Assembly: GCA_965223705.1 (NCBI GenBank)
Contig: OZ245015.1
Location: forward strand, 3,264,001-3,328,000
Source of the DNA: Myxococcota bacterium
Lineage (GTDB): Bacteria > Myxococcota_A > UBA9160 > UBA6930
Direction: 5' to 3'
DNA length: 64,000 nt
The position numbers were made by a program, and so were the translations under genes. The stretch's first letter is position 1; each line of letters begins with the position of its first letter. Under the pieces are notes generated by a model, which worked only from the letters and a program-made list of their open reading frames with translations, had not been told where the DNA came from and ran no database searches. This document shows, piece by piece, positions 3,478 to 52,449 of this stretch.

Positions 3478-3491
3478 CCGCTGCTCCGTTT

Positions 3492-14641: not shown

Positions 14642-14692
14642 ACACGCTATTGTGCCGGATTCAGCCGGCGAGCGGGCAACAAGGAGACTTTC

Positions 14693-20817: not shown

Positions 20818-20820
20818 CGC

Positions 20821-21120: not shown

Positions 21121-22136
21121 TCGAACAACTCCGTGAGGCCGTACGACTCGACAACGTCGCGCTGGCTCTTCTGCGCGTTGTCGAACGCTTCATCGAATGA
21201 GCGGACGGGGCGGGGAATATCCTTCCAGACGGGCTCCAACGCCTTGGCCGCTTCCAGCGCGGGCGCTTGCCACGCCGCAAACCACTCTCGGATCACGTCG
21301 CGGTTTCCCGCCGCGTCGGGATTCTCGTCGGCGATCGCCATTCGAACGAGCTCACCGGCGACCGCCTGATTGCGCCGGCGGTCTCGCTCGGTGGTCAGCG
21401 CGATGACCGGGGTCGCTAAGTCTCGGTGGACCGGCGCGTTGTCTCGCAAGAGCGAACCGACACCCAGGTCGGCAACCACCGGAAGCACCGCGAAATTCGT
21501 GACGACACACAGCTCCGCCCAGTCTTCCAGTGCCATCGCCCGCTCGGCGAGCGACCGGAGCGGTTGATAGGCGGCTTCGGAAAGCCAGCGATCCTTCGCG
21601 CCGGTATCGGCAAACCCTTCGATTTCTTGTTCGAGATCCAGCATGAAGAGCACGATCGCCTGGGCGTGCCGCATGTGGTCAAAGCCTTGAAACGCCATCG
21701 CGTGCCCGATCGGGTCGGAGAGCGCTTCGCGATTCGCCACCGCGAAACTCCGAAAGAGTCCGTACTCGAAGAACGACCAGACGCGGTAGTGATCCCGCAA
21801 GACGTGCTCGACCCAGTCGCGATCGAAGGCTCGGAGAGACCCCGCCGCTTTTGCGTCGTCGACCAGGCGCGCAATCGCTCGTTCCTGCTCGGCTTGCATA
21901 CGAACGTAGCTCCGCTGCCAATAGCGACCCGGATCGCGAAAATCGTACCAGTGAGGGTGACGCAACCGCGTCGATTCCGGGCGCCACGCCGGGCGCCCTT
22001 CTTCGGTGCGCATGTAATACTGGGTGTAAGGCTGATCTGGATCCGGCTGGACGTAGGTCGAGACGGCCTCATAGTCCGATAGCCGCCGCCGCGACGGCTT
22101 GACGTAGGTGATGTCTCGAGGGGCGTCGACGCTCAC
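21117..22136 (-). CDS. SDIMO-1 hydroxylase beta subunit
   Basis: RRRLSDYE, WYDFRDP..YWQRSYV, EYGLF, D.MRHAQ, DWAE motifs. Confidence 0.92.
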   Translation of the reverse strand: MSVDAPRDITYVKPSRRRLSDYEAVSTYVQPDPDQPYTQYYMRTEEGRPAWRPESTRLRHPHWYDFRDPGRYWQRSYVRMQAEQERAIARLVDDAKAAGSLRAFDRDWVEHVLRDHYRVWSFFEYGLFRSFAVANREALSDPIGHAMAFQGFDHMRHAQAIVLFMLDLEQEIEGFADTGAKDRWLSEAAYQPLRSLAERAMALEDWAELCVVTNFAVLPVVADLGVGSLLRDNAPVHRDLATPVIALTTERDRRRNQAVAGELVRMAIADENPDAAGNRDVIREWFAAWQAPALEAAKALEPVWKDIPRPVRSFDEAFDNAQKSQRDVVESYGLTELFE

Positions 22137-23695
22137 GACGCGACGGCCTCCTCTCCTGCCATCACGGGCGGCGCGACGGTGCCTTCCTCCTCCATCACAC
22201 GGAGCGGATTCTTGATCTCAAAATCCATCCGGTCGATATCGTCGATCGTCCACATGCGATCGCGGTCGAGATGTGGCTGGCCGAGAAGCGTTTTGTTGTC
22301 CGCACGCAGAAGGCCGTTCTTGCGGATGTACTCCGACAAGCTCCAGCCGTCGTAGACTTCGTCGAATGCCAGGGCGTGCAGGTAGCGGCCCGGGCTTTCA
22401 CTGAAAATGTATTCGCATGCGTCGGAACAGAACGCGTGGAGCCGCCTCTCGTGGGTGCGCACGCGACCGTGGGATGCCTCGACCGTGGGGAATACGCAGG
22501 GCATCTGACACACGCGACACAGTGTCGGCAACGACTCGAAGCCCTCAATCGAGCACGTGCCCTGGGCCGGATCGCAGAGGTCGCGGTACTGGTTCCAGAA
22601 CGCCCCGTAGCGCTCGTACCATCCCGGGGATTTCTTCTCGAACCAATCCATATCGGCTTCGGTGGGCGGATCGAAGCGCCAATAGCTCAAGGGCCAAGCG
22701 GCGAAAGCGAGCATCGCAGCCGTGTGACCCGACCACGACATTCTTTCCTTGGCCAAGTCGAACCAGCGCGGGACTTTCAATCCGAAGGGCTGGAGCTTGG
22801 CGATGTAAGCACCGGCCCAATCTTCCGCGAGCCACTCGTTCCACTTCTCCAGGTAGGAATCGCCGCGCTCCTTCTGGAAGTAGTCGTAGACCACGTGCAC
22901 AAAGGGATCGAGAAACGCGTGTTGGCGCCAAAACGCACGATCGAAGTCCTGCTGGAGCATGGGCAGGTTGTCGGGCTCGGCGAGGACCGCCGCGAGCGTC
23001 GAATACCCGTTGGCCATGTGGCGCGCTTCGTCCGATTGGATACTGAGAAACACGGTCGGAGTCGCTTGATCGCCGTTCTGTGCGGCCATCTGCGTCATCG
23101 CCACGAAGATCGAGTTCGTGTACGCCGTCTCTGCGACGACTTGAAGGTTCAGCGCGCCTTCGATGGGATCGCCCACGAAAAAGCACTCGAGCGCACTTTG
23201 GCTGGCGCGCCCGAATACATTGAGGCTTTTCAGCGGAATCGCGCGATCGAAGCCCTCGGAATCCGGAGCGTGCTTCGCCATGTACCGGTTCAGGTACGTC
23301 TCCTGGTTGACGTGGCGGACCTCGTCGAGCATCTGCGCCATGTAACCCTGCCGGAGCGCCGCGTTGTCCACCGTGTCGACGAGTTGGCCGCAGCATTTCA
23401 TCGCCCCGTACTCACCGAAGGTCAGCACCGGCAACGCGATCTTCAAGATCTCGGTCCAGCGTTCTTCGGCTTGTCCGGTCGAGCCACTGCGGGCAATCGC
23501 GTCCTCGAGTGCACCGTATTGCCGGTCGTCCTTTTCCTGCTCCATCGAGCAGTAGTCGCGGATCAGGTGCCGGAACGGGTCCTTCGTCTTCGCGGGAATC
23601 TTGTACTTCGTGGGATAGCGCTCGGGCTTCGTGTGATACGTGGGTTCCCAATCAAAGTCCTTTACGCGGTTGTGAGCTTCGACGAGGTTCTTCAC
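22133..23695 (-). CDS. SDIMO-1 hydroxylase alpha subunit (group 6, propane/short-chain alkane-ether monooxygenase-like)
   Basis: Di-iron ligands EYGA / DEVRH / ETAYTN / DEARH; C-terminal CRVCQMPC and FCS..C; GTG start with GGAGG RBS. Confidence 0.93.
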   Translation of the reverse strand: MKNLVEAHNRVKDFDWEPTYHTKPERYPTKYKIPAKTKDPFRHLIRDYCSMEQEKDDRQYGALEDAIARSGSTGQAEERWTEILKIALPVLTFGEYGAMKCCGQLVDTVDNAALRQGYMAQMLDEVRHVNQETYLNRYMAKHAPDSEGFDRAIPLKSLNVFGRASQSALECFFVGDPIEGALNLQVVAETAYTNSIFVAMTQMAAQNGDQATPTVFLSIQSDEARHMANGYSTLAAVLAEPDNLPMLQQDFDRAFWRQHAFLDPFVHVVYDYFQKERGDSYLEKWNEWLAEDWAGAYIAKLQPFGLKVPRWFDLAKERMSWSGHTAAMLAFAAWPLSYWRFDPPTEADMDWFEKKSPGWYERYGAFWNQYRDLCDPAQGTCSIEGFESLPTLCRVCQMPCVFPTVEASHGRVRTHERRLHAFCSDACEYIFSESPGRYLHALAFDEVYDGWSLSEYIRKNGLLRADNKTLLGQPHLDRDRMWTIDDIDRMDFEIKNPLRVMEEEGTVAPPVMAGEEAVAS

Positions 23696-23750: not shown

Positions 23751-23781
23751 TTCATGATGAACCTGGTGACAACTTTGTCAA
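23751..23781 (-). promoter_or_regulatory. sigma70-like promoter of the SDIMO-1 operon, overlapped by palindromic operator TGACAA-CT-TTGTCA (23767-23780) and a second IR TTCAT-G-ATGAA (23751-23761)
   Basis: Minus strand reads TTGACA-16 nt-CATCAT in an AT-rich patch about 60-85 bp upstream of the alpha-subunit start. Confidence 0.65.
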
Positions 23782-23802
23782 TACAATTTTGGCGCGAGCG
23801 AC

Positions 23803-24579
23803 CTATTCCTCTACGAAGTGACGGGGTGCCTTCGAAAAATAGGTCTCCCGGGCAATCCGGCTGTTCTCACTGTGCCCCATCAGGGCAGCGGAGAGGTGAT
23901 CCAGGTGGTGAATCGAGCGGTCGAGGGCCTTGGCGTAGGCGTTGATCGACGCCTTGGTGCTGAAGGTCGGCCAGGCGGGTTGCCGTGCGATCTCCTCCGC
24001 CAACTCGGTCGCTCTCGCGAGAAGCGCATCCTCCGCCACCACTTCGTTGACGAAGCCGTAGTCGAGCAGCTGCTCGGCGCCGTACGTGTGGCCGAGGATG
24101 ATCATCTCTTTCGCTCGCGCGGGTCCGACGAGCTGGATCACGGCTGGGATCGTGTGCCAAGTTAAGTTGAAGCCGATGCTCACCTCGTTGATCGTCAGCG
24201 ACGTGCTCGAAGCGGCGAGCCGGAAATCGCAAGTCGCCGGAAGCACGGCTCCGCCGCCAATGCAGTACCCGTGCATACAAGCGATGGTGATGGGCGAGAG
24301 GTTCGTCAACAGGTCGGCCATTCGGGCACCCGCTTTCGACATGTCGATCGATTCCGTGGTGTTCATGCGAGGCACCTTGAGATCGGCCCCCGAGCAGAAG
24401 CTCTTCCCCTCTCCCCGGAGAATCACCACGCGAACGTCGCGCAGGCGATCGAGTGCCGCGGCCGCCGTCGTCACGTCGGCGATCAGCTGTGGGTTTACGG
24501 CGTTGTGGACCGCGGGGCGGTTCAGCACCAAATGACGGATCGGTCCGTCGCCTTCGACACGAACGGTTTCGAGTTCCAT
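23803..24579 (-). CDS. enoyl-CoA hydratase/isomerase family protein
   Basis: LNRPAVHNA, FCSGADL, HGYCIGGG, NEVSIG. Confidence 0.9.
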   Translation of the reverse strand: MELETVRVEGDGPIRHLVLNRPAVHNAVNPQLIADVTTAAAALDRLRDVRVVILRGEGKSFCSGADLKVPRMNTTESIDMSKAGARMADLLTNLSPITIACMHGYCIGGGAVLPATCDFRLAASSTSLTINEVSIGFNLTWHTIPAVIQLVGPARAKEMIILGHTYGAEQLLDYGFVNEVVAEDALLARATELAEEIARQPAWPTFSTKASINAYAKALDRSIHHLDHLSAALMGHSENSRIARETYFSKAPRHFVEE

Positions 24580-24669
24580 ACATCCTCCTCGTGCGGGTGT
24601 ACCTTACGCCCCGCCACTTCGCGAGGCTCGGCGGTTCCGGATAAACTCAGGTCTCAACCAGGAGTCACC

Positions 24670-24999
24670 ATGAGCGAAACACTGCACCCGATCGCCACTC
24701 GAATGGTCTACGAAGATGAGTTTGTGCGCGTCTGGCACCAGCACGTACCGAAAGGGGGGCGTATCGAACGCCACGAACACGAGCTCGACTATTTCCTCCT
24801 GAACGTCGCCGGCGAAGGCCCCATCGATGTGACGTTTCACGACGGAACGGGAGGTGAGCTCGGAGAATCGTTTCAGTTCGTGCCGAAACCGGGCGAGTCG
24901 GTCTTCATCCCCAAAGGACACATCGAGACCGCCGTCAACCACGGCGAGGATTTTCGCGCAGTGCTCGTCGAGCTGAAGCGTCCGGAAGGCTCCGACTAG
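24670..24999 (+). CDS. cupin domain protein
   Basis: E..FVRVW, HEHELDY, FIPKGHIETAVN, VLVELK; ATG after AGGAG. Confidence 0.75.
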   Translation: MSETLHPIATRMVYEDEFVRVWHQHVPKGGRIERHEHELDYFLLNVAGEGPIDVTFHDGTGGELGESFQFVPKPGESVFIPKGHIETAVNHGEDFRAVLVELKRPEGSD

Positions 25000-25005
25000 C
25001 GCCGG

Positions 25006-25995
25006 ATGCGCCTCCGGTGGGCACTCGGCGCGCTGGCCTCACTCCTGTGCATCGTGGGCGTTGCGCTGGGCGGCGGGGTCCTTCTGGCTCACAGCGATGC
25101 CCCGAAACCCGACGCTACGGTAGACGTGTTCGGCCTCTCCGAGCTCGCCTCCCTCCCGCGACCGAACCTGCCACCCCTCCTCCGCTATCCGGCGCGGGAC
25201 GGCGCCGCTCTTCCCTACCGCTTCTACGACGCCAGGTCGGACCGCATCCTGATCCTTCTGCACGGCTCGAGCTACCACGGCGGTGGCTATCACTTGCAAG
25301 CCCATACGCTCAGTGTTTCGGATACAGCGAAGATCGTGTTGCCGAATCTGCGCGGACACTTTCAGTCGGGCGACACCCGGGGCGACGTCTCCTACATCGG
25401 CCAGTTGGAAGACGACATCGCGGACCTCATCGGGCACCTGCGCGAGCGTGGACACGATGGACCGGTCTTCCTCGCCGGCCATTCAAGCGGGGGTGGACTG
25501 GCGCTGCGCTTCGCGGGCGGGCAGCACCGCGCGCTCGTCGAAAGCTACCTCCTCCTGGCACCGGCGATTCCCGGCACGCCGGCGCTTGCGCCCGGTGCCG
25601 GGGGTTGGGCCACGCTTCACTGGAAACGGCTGGTGGGGTTGTTGTTTCTGAATCAATTCGGCGTCCATCGCTACGACGGCCTACCGATCATCGCCTTCAA
25701 TGTGCCCGAAGCCTTGCGCGACGGGTCCGAGACCCTCTCATACTCCCACCGCTTGAATCTCTCCTACCACCCGCGGCGGGACCTGCGAGGCGACCTCAAG
25801 GGCCTTGCGCCGGGCAGCCTCGTGATCGTCGGCGGCCGAGACGAAGCGGTCGACGCAAAGCCGCTCGCAGAACTCGTTTCACGACACGCGCCAGCGGTCG
25901 AGATCTCTGTGATTGAGCCCCTTACCCATTTCGGCATTCTTCGGGATGCCGGCGTCCTCGCGAACGTCCAACGCTGGCTTCGAACGTCGCAATAG
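25006..25995 (+). CDS. membrane-anchored alpha/beta hydrolase (lysophospholipase-like)
   Basis: N-terminal TM/signal segment, LLHGS, NLRGH, GHSSGG, LTHFG. Confidence 0.85.
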   Translation: MRLRWALGALASLLCIVGVALGGGVLLAHSDAPKPDATVDVFGLSELASLPRPNLPPLLRYPARDGAALPYRFYDARSDRILILLHGSSYHGGGYHLQAHTLSVSDTAKIVLPNLRGHFQSGDTRGDVSYIGQLEDDIADLIGHLRERGHDGPVFLAGHSSGGGLALRFAGGQHRALVESYLLLAPAIPGTPALAPGAGGWATLHWKRLVGLLFLNQFGVHRYDGLPIIAFNVPEALRDGSETLSYSHRLNLSYHPRRDLRGDLKGLAPGSLVIVGGRDEAVDAKPLAELVSRHAPAVEISVIEPLTHFGILRDAGVLANVQRWLRTSQ

Positions 25996-26001
25996 CCGCG
26001 A

Positions 26002-27207
26002 CTACTGGTAGATCTCCGCCTTCGCCCGTGCGGCTCTCACGACGGGAATTGCATCGTCCGCGGGCGCTTCCATCCAGGTTTTTCGCGCGAGCGCAGCTTC
26101 GATAAAAGGCGCAAGCTCGTCGGCCTTGCGGGCGTCGCGAGCTTCACGACGATCGACAAACTCGGGCAGCACTTGATCCCCAAAGAGCTCGAGGCTCTCG
26201 CAGATATGCTCGTGTCGGTTGTTCCCGCCCTGCTGCAGGAAGATGACTTGATCGACACCGACGTCCTCGTATGCGCGCACAAGCTCGGCGAAGTCGCTCG
26301 GCGTGCCGATTCCGGGCGCGGCGCGTTTCAGGGTCTTTTTCTTTGACTGCGCTTTGTAGTCCGACCAAAGCGTCGTCCGCCCCGGCACGTTGTCCTTCGT
26401 GACGAGGGCTCCCATCGCGTAGTTGAAGAAACGAAAGCCATCGATTCCGCGACGAACCGCTTCGTCGCGCTCATGATGCAGGGAGAACGGAGCGACCATG
26501 GCGATGTTCGCGTTCACGCAATGTCCGAGAGGGACGCAGGCCTCACTTCGAATCGTCCCGTAGTAGATATCCGCCCAGCGCTTCGCCTCGTCCGGGTCGA
26601 CGAAGCTGAACGCGAGGGCGCCGAGGCCGTTGCGTGCAGCCGTTTCGATGGTGGATCGATTCGTGCAGGCCATCCACATCGGCGGATGTGGTTTCTGCAG
26701 GGGTTTGGGGAGCACGTTTCGTGCGGGCATGGAGAAGCCCTCGCCGTCGTAGCCGGGATAGGGGTCCATCGCCATCATGTTCGCGATTTGCTCGGCCGCT
26801 TCGAGTGCGAGGGCGCGCTTCTTCTTCGCGGAGATCTGAAAGCCGTGGAGCTCCATCCGCGTCGCGCTCTCACCGATCCCGAACTCGACGCGGCCGGACG
26901 AGACAAGATCCAGCATTCCGACCGCCTCGGCGGTGCGAGCCGGGTGGTTGTAGAGGGGGATCACCTGCCGAATGCCAAAGCCCACCCGGATCCTCTCCGT
27001 CTTGGCGGCCAATGCCGAAAGGAAGACCTCGGAGGCCGAGCAGTGCGAGTATTCGTCGAGGAAGTGGTGCTCGACGGCCCACGCGTGGTCGATGCCCAGC
27101 TTGTCCGCGAGGACGACCTGTTCCATGGCCTCGCGGACCAGACGGTGCTCGGCATCGTCGTCCCAAGGCTTGGGGAGCTGCAGTTCGTAGAACACGCCGA
27201 ATCTCAT
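26002..27207 (-). CDS. LLM-class flavin-dependent oxidoreductase (close paralog of 11038..12252)
   Basis: Same N-terminus MRFGVFYELQLPKPWD, AVEHHFL.EYSHCSASEVFL; GGAGG RBS. Confidence 0.92.
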   Translation of the reverse strand: MRFGVFYELQLPKPWDDDAEHRLVREAMEQVVLADKLGIDHAWAVEHHFLDEYSHCSASEVFLSALAAKTERIRVGFGIRQVIPLYNHPARTAEAVGMLDLVSSGRVEFGIGESATRMELHGFQISAKKKRALALEAAEQIANMMAMDPYPGYDGEGFSMPARNVLPKPLQKPHPPMWMACTNRSTIETAARNGLGALAFSFVDPDEAKRWADIYYGTIRSEACVPLGHCVNANIAMVAPFSLHHERDEAVRRGIDGFRFFNYAMGALVTKDNVPGRTTLWSDYKAQSKKKTLKRAAPGIGTPSDFAELVRAYEDVGVDQVIFLQQGGNNRHEHICESLELFGDQVLPEFVDRREARDARKADELAPFIEAALARKTWMEAPADDAIPVVRAARAKAEIYQ

Positions 27208-27286
27208 GCGACCTCCTATAACAAAGCACCGGGAGCGACCGTGCCGCGCGATGCTACCGCGATATCCTCTCCTCCCGGAGGTTCTC

Positions 27287-27748
27287 ATGATCTCAGCCAG
27301 CAAGCCTTGGAGCCGAGCGGTTCTCGCGCTCGCGCTGATCACGGGAGCGCTCGCCTGTAGCGGCCCCTTCGTCCTGCTGCCCGGCGGCGCCCTCGAGGGC
27401 AGCGTCGCGCCGACGCCGGACAACTGGGCCGCCACCGACGCGATCCAGACGATCCAGCTCGAAACCAATCCCCGAGACCCTTATTCCGTCAACCTCTGGG
27501 TCATTGCCGATGGTGAGCAGCTCTATGTTCACGCAGGCGCGAGTCGAGCCACCTGGGTCGAGCATATGGAGTCGGATCCGAACGTCCGCCTCCGCGTGGA
27601 TGACGAGATCTACGAACTCACCGCGACGCGCGTGGACAGCCAGGAAGAGTTCGACCGCTTTAGCGACCTGTATGAGAAGAAATACGATCGAAGACCGCGA
27701 AACGAGAACGTGGACGAAGCGTACTTGTTTCGACTCATCGGGCGCTGA
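27287..27748 (+). CDS. putative lipoprotein with an FMN/F420-binding split-barrel-like fold (DUF2255-like)
   Basis: Lipobox-like ALAC; 'PYSVNLW', 'W..HMESDPNVRLRV', 'Y.KKY' are typical of split-barrel proteins. Confidence 0.55.
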   Translation: MISASKPWSRAVLALALITGALACSGPFVLLPGGALEGSVAPTPDNWAATDAIQTIQLETNPRDPYSVNLWVIADGEQLYVHAGASRATWVEHMESDPNVRLRVDDEIYELTATRVDSQEEFDRFSDLYEKKYDRRPRNENVDEAYLFRLIGR

Positions 27749-27763
27749 TCGCGAGGGCGACGA

Positions 27764-28315
27764 ATGAACATCCGCGAACTCAACGTACAGCCGGCTTCAC
27801 CGGCAGCGCTAGCACCCTACGGAGAGCTACTGGGACCCGATCGGCCCATCGCTCATCACATCGGCGATTTCTACGAGGGCGCCGTCTCGATACACGAACC
27901 GGTGTCCTTCGTCTCAGACGAAGACACCTGCCTGTCGCTCGCGACGGTGCAGCCGCGTCCGCTCGAGATCGACTACCTCGAGCGCCACTTCAAGCACACG
28001 CAGACTTTCCTTCCGCTCGGCGGCAAACCGTTCGTCGCCGTGTTCGGTGCCCCGAACGAAGGGGACATGCCTGAACTCGATCAGCTTGAGGCGTTCCGTT
28101 TCGATGGCCGCTCGGGTTTCTGCATGCGCGTCGGAACTTGGCACGAGTTCCCGTTCGCCCTCGAAGCCGACACCCAGCTCGTCATCGTGTTGCGCAACGA
28201 AACGACGCGCGACTTAGCCGGTGACAACATCGTCGACAACGAGGCCCAGGGCGGCGATCTCGACAAAAAGAACCTGCTGAAAAGAACGGGTGTTCGAATC
28301 CGACTCCGCGTGTGA
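27764..28315 (+). CDS. allA: ureidoglycolate lyase-like protein
   Basis: A.APYGEL, LERHFKHTQTFLPL, GTWHEFP motifs. Confidence 0.75.
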   Translation: MNIRELNVQPASPAALAPYGELLGPDRPIAHHIGDFYEGAVSIHEPVSFVSDEDTCLSLATVQPRPLEIDYLERHFKHTQTFLPLGGKPFVAVFGAPNEGDMPELDQLEAFRFDGRSGFCMRVGTWHEFPFALEADTQLVIVLRNETTRDLAGDNIVDNEAQGGDLDKKNLLKRTGVRIRLRV

Positions 28316-28333
28316 ACCCCAGGGAGGCGTACG

Positions 28334-28795
28334 ATGAGACGACGCTACGACAAGCCAATCGCGGCGATCCTGTTTGCCGCGCTCGCGTCGGGTATCGGCG
28401 CATCGGCGGGTGCAGAGGAAGACGTCAACAAGAACTGGTGGGGTGTCGCGATCCGAGGCTACGACCCGGTTGCTTATTTCACGATGGGTGAACCGGTAGA
28501 GGGTTCGTCGGATTTCGAGCACGAGTGGCAAGGCGCAACCTGGCGCTTTGTGAATGCGTCGCATCGCGATCGATTCGCCGCCGACCCGGAAGCCTTTGCT
28601 CCGCGATACGGGGGCTACTGCGCCGGCGGTATGGCCCTGGGACGCAAGGCTTCGATCGATCCCCAGGCGTGGGTCATCGTCGACGGCAAGCTCTATTTGA
28701 ATTACGACAAGAAGAGTCGAGACAACTTTGCAAAAGATCCGGGGCCCAAAATCAAAGAGGCAGATGCCAACTGGGAATCCCTCGGACAGCGATAG
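28334..28795 (+). CDS. secreted YHS-domain protein
   Basis: Signal peptide; AIRGYDPVAYF, F.ADPE.FAPRYGGYCA, W.IVDGKLYLNY. Confidence 0.88.
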   Translation: MRRRYDKPIAAILFAALASGIGASAGAEEDVNKNWWGVAIRGYDPVAYFTMGEPVEGSSDFEHEWQGATWRFVNASHRDRFAADPEAFAPRYGGYCAGGMALGRKASIDPQAWVIVDGKLYLNYDKKSRDNFAKDPGPKIKEADANWESLGQR

Positions 28796-28799
28796 CCCC

Positions 28800-30578
28800 T
28801 CACTCAAGCCCCGCATTGCGGAGCGCCACGGCTAACCGGCTGCGATGGGCGGAGTCCTTGAACGGCCCGTAGTTGCTGAACATCTCGACCTCGAAGAACG
28901 GGCTCAACCGCTTGACTTGTTCCGCCGAGCGTTTGGCTTCCTCAAGTCTCCCCTGCTCGGCATAGACAGCGGTCAAGACGATGTGGCCCGGAGCGAAATC
29001 GGGGTTCTGCGCGACGCTCCCCTCTAGGGTCCGCTGGGCATCGTCCAAGCGGCCCGCCAAGTAGTACGCGGTTCCGAGGTCGGCAAAATGACCCGCCTCG
29101 AGGTTCGGGTCGTAGCGAAGCGCGTTCTCGAGGGATCGTATCGCTTCGTCGGGCTGACTGAGATAGACGAGGACGGTCCCACGCATCGCGTGACTGGACG
29201 GATCGTTCGGGTTCAGGTCGATCGCACGATCGATTTGTTCTAGCGCGAGCTCGTGTTGGCCGCGCACGCTGTGAACGCGGCCCAGAATCGCGTGACCGTG
29301 CGCGAGGTTCCCGTCGATCTCGACCGACTTTCGAGCCAAGGCCAATGCGCGCTCAAGCGCGCGGTCCGGCCACTCCGTCCACCCGTCTGCCGCGTCGTCG
29401 TGATAGGTCTCGGCCAACCGCGCGTACGCCGCCGCGTAGTTCGGGTCGAGCGCTACCGCGCGCTCGAGAAAGCTCCGCGCTTCGAGGTTTCCGGAACGGG
29501 TGCGCTCCTTCAGCAACTGACGAGCGCGGAGAGCGTATTCGTAAGCAGCGAGGTTCTCCGTGGGCCGCGATGACGCGCGCGCTTGCTCGACGGCGGTAAG
29601 CCTGACGGCGAGCTGACTCGCAACTCCCTCGGTGATCTCGTCCTGAACTTTGAAGATGTCGTCGATCTTCTGGTCGTAGCGTTCGGACCAAAGCAGCACG
29701 CCGCGGGCCGCGTCACTGAGCTGGACGGCCACCCGCACGCGTTCGTCGGACCGTCGGATGGCGCCGCGAACAACGTACCGAACACCGAGTTCTGTTTTCA
29801 CCCGCTCGAGAGCGTTCTCTTCGTTGCGGTACGGCAAGACAGCGTCCCACGACATCACCAGCAGATTGGAAAAGCGGCCGAGTGCCGCGATCACGTCCTG
29901 AGTCACGCCATCGCTGAAATAGGCCTGGTCGGTGTCGCCGCTTTGATTGACAAACGGGAGAACGGCAATCTCGGGGCGACTCGCGGACGGTCTGTCGGAT
30001 CGATCGATCAGGGATAGCACCGCCGCAATCAGTAGGGCAATGCCGATCGCTGGGATCGCCCAACGCCACCCCCGGCCTCTCGTCCCCGCCGTGAGGACGT
30101 ACGGAGCGGATCCCGTGCCGCGTCGCAGGACGCGGAGACCGTCGACGTCGAGCAGAGCGCGGCGAATGACGTCCGTCACACGGACCGCGCCGCTCGCTGC
30201 GTCCGCGCGGTCGGGCCGCGGCCGACCGCGCTCAAAGATCACAACCGTGGTCTCGCTGCCTTTGCCGAGGTCGAGTGCCGCGTGTACCTCGAGTGCCGCA
30301 CGCGCCGCCTCATCCGCGTCGGCGAACGTCGCGGTGACCTCGTCGTCTTCGGCCGTCGCTTGCCCGCCAAAACCGCCGAGGAGCGAAAGCAGCCGCGAGC
30401 GATCCGCAGGAACTGGCCTTACGACGAGGGTTGCGGGGACGGGCTCCCGGGCGGAGAGGCTCGCGCGCTGTTTGCGCAGCGAAACGAGCAGAGTCGCCGC
30501 GCCCCCGAGCATGGCGACGACTTGGAGCAGACCCTCGTTTTGGTTGGCCCAATCGGCGAGGCTTGAGAACCAATCCAT
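28800..30578 (-). CDS. membrane protein: degenerate cyclase-like region + TM + TolB-N-like domain + TPR repeats
   Basis: IAVLPFVNQSGD.DQAYFSDGVT.D.I..L; multiple 'RAV.LDPNYA.AY' TPRs. Confidence 0.85.
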   Translation of the reverse strand: MDWFSSLADWANQNEGLLQVVAMLGGAATLLVSLRKQRASLSAREPVPATLVVRPVPADRSRLLSLLGGFGGQATAEDDEVTATFADADEAARAALEVHAALDLGKGSETTVVIFERGRPRPDRADAASGAVRVTDVIRRALLDVDGLRVLRRGTGSAPYVLTAGTRGRGWRWAIPAIGIALLIAAVLSLIDRSDRPSASRPEIAVLPFVNQSGDTDQAYFSDGVTQDVIAALGRFSNLLVMSWDAVLPYRNEENALERVKTELGVRYVVRGAIRRSDERVRVAVQLSDAARGVLLWSERYDQKIDDIFKVQDEITEGVASQLAVRLTAVEQARASSRPTENLAAYEYALRARQLLKERTRSGNLEARSFLERAVALDPNYAAAYARLAETYHDDAADGWTEWPDRALERALALARKSVEIDGNLAHGHAILGRVHSVRGQHELALEQIDRAIDLNPNDPSSHAMRGTVLVYLSQPDEAIRSLENALRYDPNLEAGHFADLGTAYYLAGRLDDAQRTLEGSVAQNPDFAPGHIVLTAVYAEQGRLEEAKRSAEQVKRLSPFFEVEMFSNYGPFKDSAHRSRLAVALRNAGLE

Positions 30579-30587
30579 CGTTCCGTC

Positions 30588-31973
30588 TCAAGACCGGGCT
30601 TTCCGGACGTCTCGGTACCGGGCTCCCGGATGATCATCCGCGAGTGCCACCTGCCCGACTCCGAAATAATGTTCCCGGAGTGTCGCGGCGTCGTAGCTCG
30701 TGCGAAACAAGTTGCGCCGTTGAAGCTCGGGGACGACGAACTCGACGAAGTTCTCGGTGCCCAAAGGCTCGACGGGACACAAGAGGTTGAATCCGTCGAC
30801 TCCGCCCTCTTCCGCCCAGCGCTCGAGTTCGTCGGCGACGCGACGGGGCCCTCCCACGACGACGTGCGTAATGCTTCCCACGGAGAGATACTCGGCGACT
30901 TCGCGAAAGGTCCAAACGCGCGTCGGGTCGATGGACTGAAAGTAGTCCGAGAAGAACTGCATCCCGTCCCGTTCGGTCGATCGAAGTTCGTCGTCCGGAG
31001 CGAACTTCGAGAGATCGATCCCCGTCCAGCCGCCAAACAAGGCGAGGGCTCCCTCTGGGCTCCGTATGGCCGCAACTTCCGACCAGAGCTTCGAGGCGTC
31101 TTCGTCGGTCGCCGCACAAACGACGGCGACGCCCATCAGAATCTTCACGGAATCCTGTGCGCGACCTTCTCCACGAATCGCCTCGCGATAGCGGTCGGTG
31201 TAGGTCCGGGCGACACGGAGGTTCGGGAAGACCGTGAAGAGCACTTCTCCGTGACGCGCCCCGAAAGCGATGCCGCGTTCCGAAGACCCCGCTTGATAGA
31301 CAACCGGGGTGCGCTGGGGTGAAGGCTCGCAGAGGTGCGGTCCTTCGACGCTGTAGTACTTCCCCACATGGTTGATCTCGTGAACCTTTGCGGGATCGAT
31401 CAAGCAGTCTCCGTCCTTGTCGTAGACGATCGCCCCGTCGTCCCAGCTCTCCTCCCAAAGCCGATACACGACTTCCATGTATTCATCGGCTTGGTCGTAT
31501 CGTTCGTCGTGCGGAAGCTGCTTCGGCAAGCCCTGCCGTTGCGCGTCGGTCAAGTACGAGGTCACCACGTTCCATCCCACCCGCCCGTTCGTCAGATGAT
31601 CGAGGGTCGTAAAGTGCTTCGCGGTCAAGTAGGGCGGGAAGTAGGAGGTGCTGTAGGTGCTGGCGAATCCAAGGTGGCGGGTCTCCCGCGCCATGGCAGG
31701 AATGAGGACGGTCGGGTCATTGCACGGAATCTGCACCCCGTGGCGGATCGCATCGTGTCGAGAGCCCCGAAAAATGTCGTACGTACCGTGGACGTCGGCG
31801 AAGAAGAAGGCGTCCAGACATCCGCGCTCGGCGGTCTTCGCGCGCTCGATCCAATGGTCGAGCTGGCGATAACCGGGCACCGAGCGATCGCTTGGATGTT
31901 TCCACTGCCCTTTCGACTGCGGACACGGTGAGCACTGCGAAAATGCGTTCAGATGAAGGGTTCCCGCGGACAT
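30588..31973 (-). CDS. NtaA/DmoA/DszA-family FMNH2-dependent monooxygenase (LLM)
   Basis: FFADVHG, NDP..LIP, TLDHLTNGRVGWNVVTS, HDERYDQADE, PSPQRTPVVYQAGSS; start re-picked at MSAGTL. Confidence 0.92.
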   Translation of the reverse strand: MSAGTLHLNAFSQCSPCPQSKGQWKHPSDRSVPGYRQLDHWIERAKTAERGCLDAFFFADVHGTYDIFRGSRHDAIRHGVQIPCNDPTVLIPAMARETRHLGFASTYSTSYFPPYLTAKHFTTLDHLTNGRVGWNVVTSYLTDAQRQGLPKQLPHDERYDQADEYMEVVYRLWEESWDDGAIVYDKDGDCLIDPAKVHEINHVGKYYSVEGPHLCEPSPQRTPVVYQAGSSERGIAFGARHGEVLFTVFPNLRVARTYTDRYREAIRGEGRAQDSVKILMGVAVVCAATDEDASKLWSEVAAIRSPEGALALFGGWTGIDLSKFAPDDELRSTERDGMQFFSDYFQSIDPTRVWTFREVAEYLSVGSITHVVVGGPRRVADELERWAEEGGVDGFNLLCPVEPLGTENFVEFVVPELQRRNLFRTSYDAATLREHYFGVGQVALADDHPGARYRDVRKARS

Positions 31974-32094
31974 GATCGTCTCCTCCCGGGGGAGCATATG
32001 CCGGACCGGCGCGGCGCTTCGAGCCACCGCCCAGGCTCGCCGGTGAAGCCATTGTGGCGTAGCGGCAGTATTCCGGGCCCCCGATTCACGATGA

Positions 32095-32484
32095 ATGCCG
32101 CAAAAGGATCCCGGTTACGTCACGCGCGCTCAAGAGGCGTTCGGTAGGTTCACCGGCGTATCGGAGGGAATCGAAGGGGGAATCGTGACCGGACCCGTGC
32201 TGGCTCGACTCGTGGGCGATGGGCGCTTGTCGAAGCGCGCCATCGATGAGTGCCTCGAAGCTCTGTCCGACCGGAGCGTGCCCCGACCTGCCGGAGACGT
32301 GACGGTTCGCTTGGACTCCTGCCTCCGCGAAATTCCGAAACCCGAGCGAGACGAATGGGTCTCCGACTTGTTGCGAGAACATTTCGGTCTGTCTGTGCCG
32401 GGAAGCACGCTCGGGCGTGCATCGCAGATCGCGAGACGAAGGCGTTGGAGACGGCGTTCCGCTGGCTCTGCGATTTTTTTGTAA
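32095..32484 (+). CDS. hypothetical protein
   Basis: Most protein-like frame filling the gap between divergent and convergent neighbours; no motif recognised. Confidence 0.35.
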   Translation: MPQKDPGYVTRAQEAFGRFTGVSEGIEGGIVTGPVLARLVGDGRLSKRAIDECLEALSDRSVPRPAGDVTVRLDSCLREIPKPERDEWVSDLLREHFGLSVPGSTLGRASQIARRRRWRRRSAGSAIFL

Positions 32485-32491
32485 CGCCAGC

Positions 32492-32875
32492 TCAACGGAC
32501 CGGCCACAGCCGGGGAACAACCGCCTCCCCGCGCTCGTTCACGTAACAACGTTCGGCAATACTCGCCTCGATGTCGCGCTCGCCCAAGCCCGGGCTCGCG
32601 TAGACGAGATCGATGATCTCGAGCAGGGCTCCCAGGGTGCGCTCCCGGTCGCTTACAAACGGGTTGTCCACGCTCTCCCGTGCCATTTCAATCTGCTCTT
32701 GTCGCGACTCACCGCGCGCTTTTCCAGCGGCGACGATGCGAAACGCTTGAGCGAGCTCACCGCACACGTCGTCGCGACGCGGCGCCGAGACGTCTACGTC
32801 CGCGACCGGCCCAAGGCGCACACAGGCGCCGGTGGCGAGAACCACGCTTACAAGAACGAGCGCGCGAAACATCAT
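32492..32875 (-). CDS. hypothetical lipoprotein
   Basis: MMFRALVLVSVVLATGAC signal peptide with lipobox Cys; two further Cys. Confidence 0.6.
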   Translation of the reverse strand: MMFRALVLVSVVLATGACVRLGPVADVDVSAPRRDDVCGELAQAFRIVAAGKARGESRQEQIEMARESVDNPFVSDRERTLGALLEIIDLVYASPGLGERDIEASIAERCYVNERGEAVVPRLWPVR

Positions 32876-33060
32876 CCGTTCGACGCTAGCGCCTATTCCG
32901 TGAGGACGAATCCTCTCGCAATGCGCGGTGATTCCGCTTACGAGCCATCGTCTTGCCACACACGTTTCGTAGTCTCACAGCTCCAGAGGGGGGGCGAGGC
33001 GTCGCGGAATGGGGGTTCTGCCGCGCTTTGCGTGCTGTACGAGATCGCACAGTGCTCGAG

Positions 33061-33091
33061 CCGGATCGGTGTTGCGTGACCACCGATCCGG
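33061..33091 (-). terminator. perfect 11-bp stem-loop downstream of the tetR-CoA transferase unit (possible terminator)
   Basis: CCGGATCGGTG-TTGCGTGAC-CACCGATCCGG, 30 bp after the 33122 stop; no clear U-tract. Confidence 0.45.
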
Positions 33092-33121
33092 TTCACCCCG
33101 CCAACAGCACATATGGCGTAG

Positions 33122-34306
33122 CTAGGAGATCGCTCCACAGCTTCGCAGTCGCTCAATCGAGGCGTCGTCGTGCCCGAGCTCCCGGAGAACCTCATCCGTG
33201 TGCTCGCCCAGCGCAGGCGCCATGAAGCGTACTTCCGAGGGCGTGGCTTCGAAACGGGCGGTCGGTCGGGCCATGCGCATGGGGCCGCCGGCCGGGTGCT
33301 CGGCCTCAAACAGGCTGTTTCGATGGAGGATCTGCGGGTCGGTGTGGACCTCACTCAGTCGTCGAACCTTGGCGAAGGGAACTTCCTGAGCGTCGAGGCG
33401 GGCGCAAATCTCATCGGTCTTCCACTTCGCGAGTTCGCTGTCGAGGAGTTCGACCACTTCGTCGATTCGCGAAATCCGCGCGACCACCGTCGAGTACTTC
33501 GGATCCTCGGCGAGTTCGTCGCGGCCAATCGCCCGGCACATTCCACGCCACTCGTCGTCGGAAACGGTGAGGTACGTGATGCTTCCGTCGAGCGTTCGGG
33601 CGACCCGGTAGATGTCGCCCAGCGAGGGCATCGGGCGGACGCCCTCGCCGAGCCAAGTGTGGTTCCACATGCCGTCGGGCCACAAGAACGCGAGGCCGAC
33701 GTCCATCATCGTGACTTCGAGCGCTTGTCCCCCGGCGCCGCGTTCGCGCGCGTAGAGTGCAGCCGTGATCGCCTGCGCGGCATTCAACGCTGTCGCTTTG
33801 TCACAAACGATGTTCTTCACGAGTTCCGGCCGCGCATCGCCGCGCCTGCTCTGCACGTCGACGAAGCCGGTCAAACCCTGGATCACCGGATCGTACACAC
33901 GGCGGTCCGCATAGGGCCCGTCGGCGCCGAAACCGCTGATCGAAGCGTAGATGATGTCTTCCCGGGCGGCGCGGAGCACGTCGTAGCCGAGCCCCATTCG
34001 CTCCATCGCGCCCGGCCGAAAGTTCTGCACGACCACGTCCGCGGTCTTCACGAGATCGATGAGCAGCGAGCGACCGGATTCTTGGTGCGTGTCGATCACA
34101 ATCGACCGCTTGTTCCGGTTGAGCACCGCGAACATCGCGGCAGCCCCGTTTCGCACGGCGCCCATCTGGCGCGAGATGTCGCCACCCCTGGGCTGTTCGA
34201 CTTTGATGACGTCCGCGCCCTGGTCCGCGAGGACCTGAACGGCCATCGGGCCGGACACAACATTGGAGAGATCGATGATCCTGACGTCCGAGAGCGGACC
34301 GCTCAT
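33122..34306 (-). CDS. CaiB/BaiF family (class III) CoA transferase
   Basis: IIDLSNVVSGP, NRNKRS, QNFRPG, VYDPVIQ, APALGEHT; 4-bp overlap with tetR. Confidence 0.92.
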   Translation of the reverse strand: MSGPLSDVRIIDLSNVVSGPMAVQVLADQGADVIKVEQPRGGDISRQMGAVRNGAAAMFAVLNRNKRSIVIDTHQESGRSLLIDLVKTADVVVQNFRPGAMERMGLGYDVLRAAREDIIYASISGFGADGPYADRRVYDPVIQGLTGFVDVQSRRGDARPELVKNIVCDKATALNAAQAITAALYARERGAGGQALEVTMMDVGLAFLWPDGMWNHTWLGEGVRPMPSLGDIYRVARTLDGSITYLTVSDDEWRGMCRAIGRDELAEDPKYSTVVARISRIDEVVELLDSELAKWKTDEICARLDAQEVPFAKVRRLSEVHTDPQILHRNSLFEAEHPAGGPMRMARPTARFEATPSEVRFMAPALGEHTDEVLRELGHDDASIERLRSCGAIS

Positions 34307-34932
34307 TGCGCAACTCCTTCACGGTGCCGAAGGGCACCGTAGATCACGGTTTCGAGAAAGCGCTGGACCCGCGCCGGATCTCGTCGCGTGAACATCATTT
34401 GAGCGATCATGTTCCCGGATCCCACGACGAGATAGGCGGCCGCTTCGGGATCCACCGTCCGCATGAGTTCCCCGGATGCCTGGCCTTTGCGGATCACTTC
34501 GACGAAGGACCGGATGACGCGCGTCTGGAAGTCCTCGTAGAGGGGCCAGATCTCGTCCCGAACGGCGGTACTCCAATCCAGCCACACCTTGATGTGATCG
34601 GGGTGGCTCTCCGCGCGATGGGCGAACTCGCGGACGACAGCGAGCAAGGTGTCCGCGGCGCCTTCCTTGCGGGCGACGACATCCTGAATCATTTCGATGA
34701 GGAACCGGTCGACCTCGAGCAGGACCTCCCGGACGAGCTCCGCGCGCGTCGGGAAGTAGGAAAAAACCGTCGGCACAGCGACGCCGGCCTCAGCGGCGAT
34801 GGCCGCGTGGCGAGCCGAGCCGATCCCCTGCCGAGCGAACACGCGAATCGCGCAACCCAGCAGCTGGTCGCGCCTTTCCCCCCGGGGCAGACTCGGTGCC
34901 CTTTTTCGGACGAAAGCGGCGTCTTCGCTCAT
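34303..34932 (-). CDS. TetR-family regulator, LuxR(Vibrio)/HapR/SmcR-like
   Basis: HTH 'VFARQGIG..RHAAIA.EAGVAVPTVFSYFPTR..LV.EVL' and 'KVWLDWSTAVRDEIWPLY', matching the recalled HapR/LuxR motif KVWFEWSASTRDEVWPLF. Confidence 0.85.
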   Translation of the reverse strand: MSEDAAFVRKRAPSLPRGERRDQLLGCAIRVFARQGIGSARHAAIAAEAGVAVPTVFSYFPTRAELVREVLLEVDRFLIEMIQDVVARKEGAADTLLAVVREFAHRAESHPDHIKVWLDWSTAVRDEIWPLYEDFQTRVIRSFVEVIRKGQASGELMRTVDPEAAAYLVVGSGNMIAQMMFTRRDPARVQRFLETVIYGALRHREGVAQ

Positions 34933-34935
34933 CGC

Positions 34936-34974
34936 TTGCAGAGTACCCGAGATCGAGTGATAATTTTATCATTC
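34936..34974 (+). promoter_or_regulatory. sigma70-like promoter of SDIMO-2 (TTGCAG-17 nt-GATAAT) overlapped by palindromic operator TGATAA-TT-TTATCA (34958-34971)
   Basis: Read directly in the 63-bp divergent intergenic region between tetR and the beta subunit; flanks extend the IR (GAgTGATAA/TTATCAtTC). Confidence 0.7.
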
Positions 34975-34995
34975 AACCGTGAAGGAAAGCAGCTG

Positions 34996-36027
34996 ATGTG
35001 CCCCCGTCCCGGACGCAAGCGCGGTAGCCAGCCGCACTTTCGCTACTTCGAACCCGCCAAGAAGCGCGCGTCGCAGTACGAAGAAGTCACCGTCCACACC
35101 CAGTGGGACCCGAAGAACTACGCCGCACAGGGATGGTTCAACCTCGATTCCCAAGGACGGGGAGCTTGGCACGACGATTCGACCGAGCTCCGGTCCGAGA
35201 ACTGGTGGGGCTACCGGGATCCAGGCCAGGAATGGTTCCGCCCGTTCGTCAATCGGCAGGCGTCGGTCGGCGATTCGATTACACAAGCGGTAGACGGCGC
35301 GAAGCGAAGCGGCGTGTTTCACGGCTTCACGCCCAAGTGGATCGAGTTTCTTCGCACTCATTACGCCGCCTACCGTTTCCCCGAGTACGGGCTCTTTCTC
35401 TGTCTGAGTCATGCGCAGCGTGAAGCGCTTTCCGACGTCGTCGCGAGTCCCTTGATGTTCCAGGGCCTCGAGAAGGATCGACACGCTCAGGACATCGCCC
35501 TCTACGGCATGGAGCTCGAAGACGCCATCCCGGGCTTCAGCGACGCGGACTGCAAAGCCGTTTGGATGGAGTCAACGGAGTGGCAACCGCTGCGCCGCTT
35601 CATCGAGGAACTCCTCGCCGCGCGAGACTGGGCAGAAATCAATCTCGCGATCAACCTGATTTACGAGCCCTTGGCCGCGGCACTGTTTGCGCGAGAGCTC
35701 GTGCTGCGTTTTGCGCCGCACCACGGCGACTCGGTCACGCCGGTGATCGTCGCCGGCGCCGAGGCCGACCGCGCGGTACGCGCAGAGAGCACCCGGGAGT
35801 TTGTTCGCTTCATCGTCGCGCAGGACGAAGGCAACCGAGACATCATCGACGGCTGGCTCGCCAACTGGAGCCCTCGGATGATCGATGCTTGCCGAGCCTT
35901 CGAGCCGTTCTTCACCGCTCCTGAGCACCCACCACAATCGTTCACAGAAGCCTTCGCCCGTGTGGTCGATGAGTGGCAAGCGAACCTCGGAGAACTCGGG
36001 CTGACCTGCCCGGCGGAGCGCTCATGA
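34996..36027 (+). CDS. SDIMO-2 hydroxylase beta subunit
   Basis: YFEPAKKRASQYE, W.GYRDP..EW.RPFV, EYGLFL, DRHAQD, RDWAE, APHHGDSVTP; ATG at 34996 after AAGGA. Confidence 0.92.
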   Translation: MCPRPGRKRGSQPHFRYFEPAKKRASQYEEVTVHTQWDPKNYAAQGWFNLDSQGRGAWHDDSTELRSENWWGYRDPGQEWFRPFVNRQASVGDSITQAVDGAKRSGVFHGFTPKWIEFLRTHYAAYRFPEYGLFLCLSHAQREALSDVVASPLMFQGLEKDRHAQDIALYGMELEDAIPGFSDADCKAVWMESTEWQPLRRFIEELLAARDWAEINLAINLIYEPLAAALFARELVLRFAPHHGDSVTPVIVAGAEADRAVRAESTREFVRFIVAQDEGNRDIIDGWLANWSPRMIDACRAFEPFFTAPEHPPQSFTEAFARVVDEWQANLGELGLTCPAERS

Positions 36028-36323
36028 GCCCCACCGAGCTCCGCGAGAAGCACACGGTCAGCGCCAAGCTCATGGCGGGCGAAGAAGCGGAAGCCATCGC
36101 CGATGCCGTGCTCTCGAGCAACGCAGCCGCCGTCGTCGAGGACCACGGGGCGTACCTCGTGATCGAAGCCGAGCGCGAGCTCGTCTTCGATATGGAAGAC
36201 ATCGCGCTCGAACTCGGCCGCCCGTATGACGTGGCCGCGTTTCAGGTCGTCTTGTCGAGCTACACCGGGGAAGTCGACGTGCAAGATCGACAAGTTCTCA
36301 TCCGCGAAGCAATGAGCGGTTAG
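36024..36323 (+). CDS. SDIMO-2 coupling protein (MmoB/DmpM family)
   Basis: LMAGEEAEAI, D.GAY..IEA, FQVVLSSYTG; ATGA overlap with the beta stop. Confidence 0.9.
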   Translation: MSPTELREKHTVSAKLMAGEEAEAIADAVLSSNAAAVVEDHGAYLVIEAERELVFDMEDIALELGRPYDVAAFQVVLSSYTGEVDVQDRQVLIREAMSG

Positions 36324-36342
36324 TGCAAAGGGAGTCCGCGCC

Positions 36343-37869: not shown

Positions 37870-37877
37870 AGCTCGCG

Positions 37878-44705: not shown

Positions 44706-44746
44706 GGTTCTTTAGGGTCCCCTGCGGCGGGCTACACTCCGGCGCG

Positions 44747-52431: not shown

Positions 52432-52449
52432 CGCCGATCCCTCCACACG

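Follow-up and report, generated by a model that had tools for sequence, protein, structure and literature searches.

The two operons and their palindromes

The window analysed in this study is a stretch of 64,000 nucleotides from a Myxococcota bacterium (C1:3264001-3328000 of the source genome, G000). It contained two operons for soluble di-iron monooxygenases (SDIMO-1 and SDIMO-2), a tetR gene that encodes a TetR-family regulator and diverges from SDIMO-2, and two short palindromes, site 1 upstream of SDIMO-1 and site 2 between tetR and SDIMO-2 (Table 1). We suggest that both palindromes are operators of the type bound by Vibrio LuxR, and that this TetR may use them to control the two operons and itself.

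Both palindromes were located exactly where a preliminary description of this DNA had placed them, with the core of site 1, TGACAACTTTGTCA, at 23767-23780 and the core of site 2, TGATAATTTTATCA, at 34958-34971; the observation of two palindromes is confirmed. The cores show the symmetric exchange already described, at positions 4 and 11 (C/T and G/A), and differ besides in the first base of the spacer. The motif TGAYAANNTTRTCA had two matches in the window against 0.00 expected (100 shuffles), and exactly two in the whole genome (4,559,241 bases, 64.7% GC, two contigs), each upstream of an SDIMO operon, so the earlier remark that it was not noticed in other intergenic regions holds genome-wide. 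The looser pattern TGAYANNNNTRTCA also found sites 1 and 2 and nothing else in the genome, and spacer variants of 0, 1, 3 or 4 bases gave no match across the same 4,559,241 bases. With up to two mismatches allowed, the window had four matches against 1.73 expected, a number reached by 8 of 100 shuffles and not significant.

Site 1 lay within the 107-bp gap between the stop codon of an enoyl-CoA hydratase gene (23803) and the GTG start codon of SDIMO-1 alpha (23695). Its right arm contains a minus-strand TTGACA (23781-23776), which belongs to TTGACA-16-CATCAT, the sole match of a sigma-70-like scan of this gap (1 against 0.1 expected). The described overlap of site 1 with a -35 hexamer of SDIMO-1 corresponds to this 10/12 match, which is a match to the consensus only. 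No terminator-like site was found in a scan of the gap between the hydratase gene and SDIMO-1.

Site 2 was centred in the 63-bp gap between the ATG of tetR (34932, minus strand) and the ATG of SDIMO-2 beta (34996, plus strand), the gap to which it had been assigned, at 25 bp from the former and 24 bp from the latter. For tetR, SDIMO-2 beta and SDIMO-1 alpha, the N-termini of orthologs confirmed where translation starts. Behind tetR comes a family III CoA-transferase gene; the two genes overlap by ATGA (34303-34306, read from the sequence) and are in this way translationally coupled.

The gene order of SDIMO-2 is beta, coupling protein, alpha and reductase, which is the order of group 7 SDIMOs, whose type is ZmoABCD of Solimonas soli (PMC11825192, section 3.7). 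The relatives of SDIMO-2 alpha formed a coherent clade of at least 58% identity (68% in Nevskia and 64% in Sinimarinibacterium), after which identity fell to 45%; they were found in Gammaproteobacteria, Myxococcota and other metagenome-assembled genomes (MAGs). The published criterion for group 7 is at least 60% alpha-subunit identity to ZmoC of S. soli (PMC11825192, supplementary Table S1), and SDIMO-2 is probably a group 7 enzyme as judged from gene order and alpha clade rather than by comparison with ZmoC. According to section 3.7 of the same paper, it is not known what induces group 7 SDIMOs, what their native substrate is or which pathways they serve; differently from the arrangement here, the section names no TetR regulator. 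Expression of ZmoABCD in Pseudomonas putida KT2440 is listed there in Table S2. A weak C-terminal YHS match (PF04945, E 9.9e-5, below cut-off) was seen in SDIMO-2 alpha, and this Pfam label is common among its relatives.

Table 1. Features of the window and of the paralogous tetR locus (window positions unless a contig is named; PWM1 and PWM2, the two position weight matrices of the text; ORF, open reading frame)
Feature	Position	Strand	Basis or remark
SDIMO-1 operon	19795..23695	-	Pfam Phenol_Hydrox (twice), MmoB_DmpM, Fer2/FAD_binding_6/NAD_binding_1
SDIMO-1 reductase	19795-20817	-	Pfam
SDIMO-1 coupling protein	20821-21120	-	Pfam
SDIMO-1 beta	21117-22136	-	Pfam
SDIMO-1 alpha	22133-23695	-	Pfam; best PDB matches MmoX of soluble methane monooxygenase (sMMO), E 1e-111
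Promoter-like element TTGACA-16-CATCAT before SDIMO-1	23754..23781	-	consensus match only, 10/12; -35 hexamer inside site 1
Site 1, predicted 22-bp LuxR-type box CTGGTGACAACTTTGTCAATAC	23763..23784		core 23767-23780; PWM1 and PWM2 matches
Enoyl-CoA hydratase gene upstream of site 1, same strand as SDIMO-1	23803..24579	-	Pfam ECH_1 1.1e-40
Family III CoA-transferase gene	33122..34306	-	Pfam CoA_transf_3 4e-103
tetR, LuxR/HapR-like TetR-family regulator, 209 aa	34303..34932	-	Pfam TetR_N; PDB; NCBIfam
Site 2, predicted 22-bp box CGAGTGATAATTTTATCATTCA	34954..34975		core 34958-34971; PWM1 and PWM2 matches; boxes at the same place in orthologs
SDIMO-2 operon	34996..38903	+	Pfam matches and ORFs
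SDIMO-2 beta	34996-36027	+	Pfam/ORF
SDIMO-2 coupling protein	within 35973-36323	+	Pfam/ORF
SDIMO-2 alpha	36343-37869	+	Pfam/ORF
SDIMO-2 reductase	37791-38903, start uncertain	+	Pfam/ORF
Paralog tetR with its own box CTATTGAAGTCATCATCAATAA	C1:3518057-3519948 (L044 6049-7949)		box at C1:3519927-3519948, in 58-bp divergent gap; top PWM1 match of the genome
Luciferase-like monooxygenase genes (examples)	2215-3828, 11038-12249, 12303-13370, 14225-15640, 26002-27468, 30588-32027, 44678-45868
FMO/BVMO-like genes (flavin-containing or Baeyer-Villiger monooxygenase), two	9475-10935, 42561-44150
TauD gene	51559-52446
2-oxoglutarate-Fe(II) oxygenase gene	41919-42548

The TetR regulator and its family operator

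The preliminary description called the tetR product LuxR/HapR-like, and the searches agreed. In a phmmer search of PDB, the best matches were OpaR (8.8e-27), HapR (7.5e-26) and SmcR/LuxR (about 5e-23), with Vibrio LuxR-type proteins down to 5e-22, and the next TetR followed at 4.3e-9. The best NCBIfam family was NF040929 (LuxR/HapR/OpaR) at 6.5e-27, with the runner-up family 15 orders of magnitude behind (6.3e-12). The scores against NF040929 were 94.6 bits for the TetR of the window, 94.9 for a paralog in the same genome and 89.5 for the ortholog in a relative (G099), none of which reached the equivalog cut-off of 350. By these matches, the adjacent TetR is a LuxR/HapR-like protein and a relative of the Vibrio quorum-sensing regulator, not its equivalog. 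Its C-terminal domain gave only generic matches (TetR_C_24, TetR_C_6 and TetR_C_13).

The recognition helix VAVPTVFSYFPTR aligned with, and was nearly identical to, the Vibrio helix VSVATVFNYFPTR, and the tryptophan-rich signature KVW(L/F)(D/E)WS...(D/E)(I/V)WP(L)(Y/F) was conserved. In Vibrio alginolyticus LuxR, Ser49, Ala51, Phe54 and Asn55 contact bases, and the N-terminal Arg9 and Arg11 read the outer minor grooves (PMC8034623). The four base-contacting residues align with A52, P54, F57 and S58 of the window TetR; only the Phe is identical, and the flanking TVF-YFPTR is conserved. More distant homologs retain an Arg at the Arg11 position.

The family was collected from several sources. Among 1.84 billion representative proteins, there were 296 TetR homologs with E values up to 1e-10 and 56 with E values up to 1e-30; a label that the Joint Genome Institute (JGI) gives to relatives is 'TetR/AcrR family hemagglutinin/protease transcriptional regulator'. 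A homolog was carried by 11 of 61, and then 34 of 225, genomes of the class, and we read the upstream regions of 33 foreign loci. In fifteen of these the stretch read, roughly 200 bp, was without a box; most of the fifteen come directly after another gene. From 18 of the foreign loci we picked 24 boxes by eye and built a position weight matrix (PWM1), leaving out the sites of the window itself. Applied blind to loci from metagenomes (80 fetched, 10 dropped for too little upstream DNA), PWM1 had its best match of the whole locus, scoring at least 14 bits, in the 250 bp before tetR at 62 of 70, although this zone made up about 6% of the scanned DNA. Of 65 loci taken from species-representative genomes, 52 likewise had their best match in this zone, and several of the remaining 13 had strong boxes 1.2-1.6 kb upstream, a position that would fit tetR as second gene of an operon.

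Through the 70 distinct metagenome boxes we obtained a second matrix (PWM2) with the consensus TTATTGATAATATTATCAATAA. The V. alginolyticus LuxR motifs are TTATTGATAAATTTATCAATAA by chromatin immunoprecipitation sequencing (ChIP-seq) and TTATTGATANTTTTATCAATAA by DNase-seq, a 9-4-9 palindrome (PMC8034623). Apart from the four central bases, which are weakly conserved, our consensus agreed with TTATTGATAAATTTATCAATAA throughout, at 18 conserved positions. The 14-bp cores of both window sites fit the 22-bp 9-4-9 operator TTATTGATA-N4-TATCAATAA, and positions 5-18 of TTATTGATANTTTTATCAATAA are identical to the site 2 core; for the outer flanks, agreement was limited to one side of site 1. The resemblance to Vibrio LuxR/SmcR palindromes proposed earlier thus extends to the geometry and core of the published box, and the two palindromes are likely to be LuxR-type operator boxes, as predicted from these comparisons.

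Over G000, PWM1 ranked the paralog's own box first (23.7 bits), site 1 second (21.8 bits) and site 2 third (18.5 bits), while PWM2 ranked site 1 first (20.3 bits), the paralog's box second (17.0 bits) and site 2 fourth (14.8 bits). An order-1 Markov null model gave 0.75 expected sites per genome at 18 bits or more and none at 20 bits or more in four simulated genomes. G000 had three sites of at least 18 bits and eight of at least 14 bits, against 0.75 and 10 expected by chance, which does not fit a global regulon of hundreds of sites. The preliminary description had proposed a genome-wide scan of the motif; in that scan it was not frequent at random positions, with two copies in all and matrix ranks between 1 and 4. 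The fourth PWM1 site (C1:2184979, 17.9 bits), which is ahead of site 2 with PWM2, lies upstream of a PEP-CTERM protein gene and was taken as chance. Four SDIMO clusters were found in G000, and the two outside the window (C1:1844111-1847622 and C1:2769662-2771531) had no LuxR-type box and no site above 10.2 bits. The best site there was a lone ATATTGAT half-site of 10.2 bits, about 485 bp before the 2.77 Mb cluster.

The paralog is a second LuxR/HapR-like TetR, 40% identical to that of the window and encoded 220 kb away from it by the second gene after a cytochrome P450 gene. Measured from site 1, the SDIMO-linked tetR lies at 11 kb, the gene of the paralog at about 230 kb and the paralog's own box at 232 kb.

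Proposed control of SDIMO-1 and SDIMO-2

The reading that we prefer, with a probability of about 0.58, is that a dimer of the adjacent TetR binds both boxes and represses its own operon, SDIMO-2 and SDIMO-1 until a ligand releases it. At site 2 the dimer would block both divergent promoters, that of the tetR-CoA-transferase operon and that of SDIMO-2. The same TetR would also bind at site 1, where it would cover the -35 hexamer of the promoter-like element of SDIMO-1, and a ligand would release it from the DNA.

The arrangement at site 2 (tetR with a TetR_N domain, a 63-bp divergent gap and a perfect palindrome at its centre) fits the criteria for a divergent local TetR repressor, for which the gap is below 200 bp. 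It is also conserved. In G099 the TetR is 72% identical and divergent from an SDIMO-2 ortholog (alpha 89%), and the only TGAYANNNNTRTCA sites in this 4.7-Mb genome are tandem boxes, TGATAAAACTATCA and TGACAAATCTATCA, in the tetR/SDIMO-2 gap. Both half-site types of the window are thus used in the operator region of the ortholog. Divergent tetR/SDIMO-beta pairs with boxes of at least 14.5 bits were found at ten other loci (L051, L059, L113, L122, L139, L140, L142, L143, L146 and L149), and the boxes of L122 and L146 are identical; among the loci collected, L131 appears to be the G099 contig. At L139 the boxes lie about 100-160 bp before SDIMO beta and tetR is 1.3 kb off behind another gene. The module with its boxes recurs across phyla, the records that carry it being labelled by their titles as Gammaproteobacteria, Alphaproteobacteria and Myxococcota MAGs. 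One contig with the module, L143, is titled as a Klebsiella pneumoniae MAG, whereas the other Gammaproteobacteria MAGs with it are environmental; the title may be a binning error.

Several findings weigh against our reading or parts of it. A search of the other 224 genomes of the class found an SDIMO-1 alpha ortholog in two, G099 and G100 (80-81% identity), and in both the upstream gap is free of boxes; G099 lacks one there despite having the tetR ortholog and boxes at tetR/SDIMO-2, and G100 has no TGAYANNNNTRTCA in its genome whatever. Site 2 alone is near the noise of the matrices, with 0.75 sites expected at its level and rank 4 with PWM2, and the promoter scan gave no sigma-70-like site around it, so the overlap with a -10 of SDIMO-2 claimed in the preliminary description is unsupported. 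The positions of the minor-groove arm, Arg9 and Arg11 in LuxR, align with A12 and S14 here, with R9 and R11 of the window TetR sitting three residues upstream of them. PWM2 sites were collected using PWM1, and PWM1 boxes were picked by eye, which leaves the matrices not fully independent. The paralog equals the window TetR at three of the four base-contact positions (A, P and F, aligned with Ser49, Ala51 and Phe54), and among the ten boxes most similar to site 1 a single one was SDIMO-linked, which is the base rate (21 of 201). Finally, Vibrio LuxR also activates genes.

The conservation of boxes before orthologous operons, which had been named as a check, thus came out positive for tetR/SDIMO-2 (G099 and about ten other modules) and negative for SDIMO-1 (0 of 2 orthologs). 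Because the orthologous SDIMO-1 promoters are without a box, site 1 is lineage-specific, and this looks like growth of a regulon by operator gain. The earlier proposal that one repressor governs both operons and itself was accordingly upheld in part: predicted control of SDIMO-2 and of its own gene by a TetR with a LuxR-type operator is well supported, and extension of that control to SDIMO-1 through the common operator is plausible, not secured, given the boxless orthologs and the paralog as a second candidate.

Some of the same findings would suit split control, in which site 2 is the operator of the adjacent TetR and site 1 is bound mainly by the paralog, or is a recent orphan box with little effect. 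The genome has two LuxR/HapR-like TetRs and three strong boxes, the two proteins agree at the residues named above, both SDIMO-1 orthologs are boxless, and box similarity does not separate the paralogs. Assigning site 1 to one of them in that way was given up as non-discriminating (1 of 10 against 21 of 201), although the foreign box nearest to site 1 among the 201, at L139 with 19 of 22 bases, is linked to an SDIMO. Such a division is rather unlikely in our view, though it is the alternative that we take most seriously. Only 11 kb separate site 1 from the SDIMO-linked tetR, against 232 kb to the paralog's box; the half-site TGACAA of site 1 occurs in the operator region of the ortholog, and a promoter-like element has its -35 hexamer there. 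That this 107-bp gap should contain, by chance, a site scoring at least 20 bits is very unlikely. From the distance to the two genes (11 kb against about 230 kb), and since both targets are SDIMO operons, we infer that the SDIMO-linked TetR rather than the P450-linked paralog would occupy site 1.

Whether this TetR would repress or activate was considered from the sites themselves. Vibrio LuxR activates and represses from one box type (PMC8034623, PMC3705450), and the TetR might likewise activate one or both SDIMO operons, or repress one and activate the other. We regard this as improbable. In V. alginolyticus, repressed targets are associated with symmetric palindromes and activated ones with asymmetric half-palindromes (PMC8034623), and both cores here are perfect palindromes. 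Site 2 leaves only 24-25 bp to either start codon, and the -35 hexamer before SDIMO-1 lies within site 1. Where a TetR gene and its divergent neighbour are separated by less than 200 bp, the regulator as a rule represses that neighbour, as in five of five tested cases (PMC3511530). Repression is therefore preferred from site geometry, the perfect symmetry of the boxes and this '200-bp rule'.

A Fur box is a 7-1-7 or 19-bp arrangement of GATAAT hexamers. Site 2 contains GATAAT-like hexamers that recall it, and its matrix score is near noise, so we considered that another regulator, such as a Fur-like iron-responsive repressor of iron enzymes, or chance AT-rich palindromes might account for the sites. 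A Fur or FNR reading of site 2 was rejected, as the arms are by eye one base closer than in the 7-1-7 box, and site 1 has no GATAAT and is not Fur-like. The same box type precedes LuxR/HapR-like tetR genes at most foreign loci (62 of 70 from metagenomes, 52 of 65 from genomes), and both sites are unique in the genome, which makes this explanation highly improbable. In favour of the adjacent TetR, no other DNA-binding regulator was detected within 18.4-44.1 kb of the window in 29 hand-picked ORFs of at least 99 aa; outside it, none was detected in 31 of 32 non-overlapping ORFs of at least 150 aa, and smaller ORFs were covered in part. The only other signalling protein detected was a hybrid GAF-histidine kinase-receiver protein (62287-63963), which has no DNA-binding domain.

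Known systems and the surrounding oxygenase genes

The system would combine the logic of divergent TetR repressors with a DNA-binding domain and an operator of the kind known from Vibrio quorum sensing, in a tiny rather than a global regulon. With LuxR, HapR, SmcR and OpaR, its closest solved structures and NCBIfam family, the TetR shares the recognition helix, the tryptophan-rich signature and the 9-4-9 operator geometry with a family consensus identical at the conserved positions; the box at its own promoter suggests autoregulation as in these regulators. It differs from them in identity (about 35-40%, and 94.6 against 350 bits), in its non-Vibrio host of 64.7% GC, in having 3-4 strong boxes per genome against hundreds of targets in Vibrio, in being divergently paired with an oxygenase operon, and in the Arg9/Arg11 arm, which is not kept in its subclade. 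A search for Qrr RNA (RF00378) gave no match in G000, but the control search likewise gave 0 of 14 genomes, which makes the search uninformative.

TetR/tetA and ActR/actA are likewise divergent pairs, with a palindromic operator in the gap and predicted joint control of regulator gene and neighbour (PMC3511530). Here, unlike there, a second, remote candidate operator lies 11 kb off at another operon, and both the operator type and the domain that would bind it belong to the LuxR/HapR subfamily. AlkX of Dietzia sp. DQ12-45-1b is a TetR repressor of a hydrocarbon monooxygenase (alkW1) that is released by fatty acids, but it is encoded downstream in the same operon, controls an AlkB-type enzyme and belongs to its own TetR subfamily, not LuxR/HapR-like (PMC8784404). 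The known or proposed SDIMO regulators MmoR/BmoR (group 3) and EtnR1/EtnR2 (CdaR and MEDS, group 4) are also encoded beside SDIMO operons, but they are activators or two-component-like and of families other than TetR (PMC8784404). The account of hydrocarbon monooxygenase regulators in that review gives TetR repressors only for AlkB- and CYP153-type systems and none for SDIMOs. A literature search, in which subscription journals were under-covered, found no report of a LuxR/HapR-type TetR outside Vibrionaceae or of a TetR regulator of an SDIMO.

To our knowledge, LuxR/HapR proteins are regarded as Vibrio quorum-sensing regulators whose natural ligand is not known. By record titles, the LuxR/HapR domain and operator consensus occur here in Myxococcota, Binatia and Alpha- and Gammaproteobacteria MAGs, and family tetR genes adjoin SDIMO, luciferase-like, AurF-like and P450 genes, which bears on the origin of the Vibrio regulators and on the ancestral ligand of the pocket. 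A wider view, which we put forward tentatively as a possibility somewhat short of even odds, is that the Vibrio regulators are one branch of a cross-phylum group of LuxR/HapR-type TetRs with one operator code (TTATTGATA-N4-TATCAATAA), which elsewhere would be local ligand-sensing repressors of oxygenases, often di-iron enzymes; one clade would be dedicated to group 7 SDIMOs and would have been rewired here, by gain of a second box, to couple two SDIMO operons.

In this genome, a unique pair of boxes connects two different SDIMO operons across a distance of 11 kb. A divergent TetR that is conserved and whose operator is defined gives a handle on the induction of group 7 SDIMOs that could be tested by reporter fusions. 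If the wider view holds, the tetR-box pair would be a ready biosensor for the inducer and native substrate of these enzymes, and it would give a clue to the class of natural ligands that the LuxR/HapR pocket takes up.

Some relatives carry overlapping tandem boxes with a 15-bp period (TCA-n-TGA junctions) and degenerate outer TTAT/ATAA flanks (L019/L131 of G099, L051-L059 and L132-L137). This set equals the SDIMO-linked subclade and its 53-55% relatives, and at the position of LuxR Arg11 the subclade no longer has an Arg (motif RAPSLPR). The Arg11 loss and the degenerate flanks may be a co-variation of the protein arm and the DNA flank.

Among 44 divergent ORFs scanned beside family tetR genes, eight were luciferase-like monooxygenases, two AurF-like and two SDIMO beta, and 30 had no Pfam match, among them a 395-aa protein that weak leads place with ferritin-like or AurF-like proteins. 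The commonest divergent partner is a protein of about 395 aa without Pfam match (L064, L065, L071, L089, L090, L094, L116, L129 and others). It has a weak NCBIfam match to R2-like ligand-binding oxidase, and feature-based searches lead to AurF-like and ferritin-like clusters, so it may be another di-iron oxygenase family. At L116 (4330-4400), a second box pair (27.5 and 23.3 bits) lies immediately upstream of an ORF whose N-terminus, as judged by eye without a family search, looks like another TetR of this family. L116 was considered as a possible precedent for a remote second operator, but as this second box pair adjoins another TetR-like ORF, it was not counted.

The window as a whole (1-64000) is an oxygenase island with at least eight luciferase-like monooxygenase genes, besides the other oxygenase genes of Table 1. 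It also encodes two family III CoA-transferases and two glutathione S-transferases (GST), and the CoA-transferase/GST genes near tetR are at 33122-34306, 40656-41354 and 59517-60668. The tetR-coupled CoA-transferase and the nearby GST genes recall the genes isoG and isoI/isoJ of the isoprene-epoxide pathway, and this neighbourhood hints at an alkene or epoxide route.

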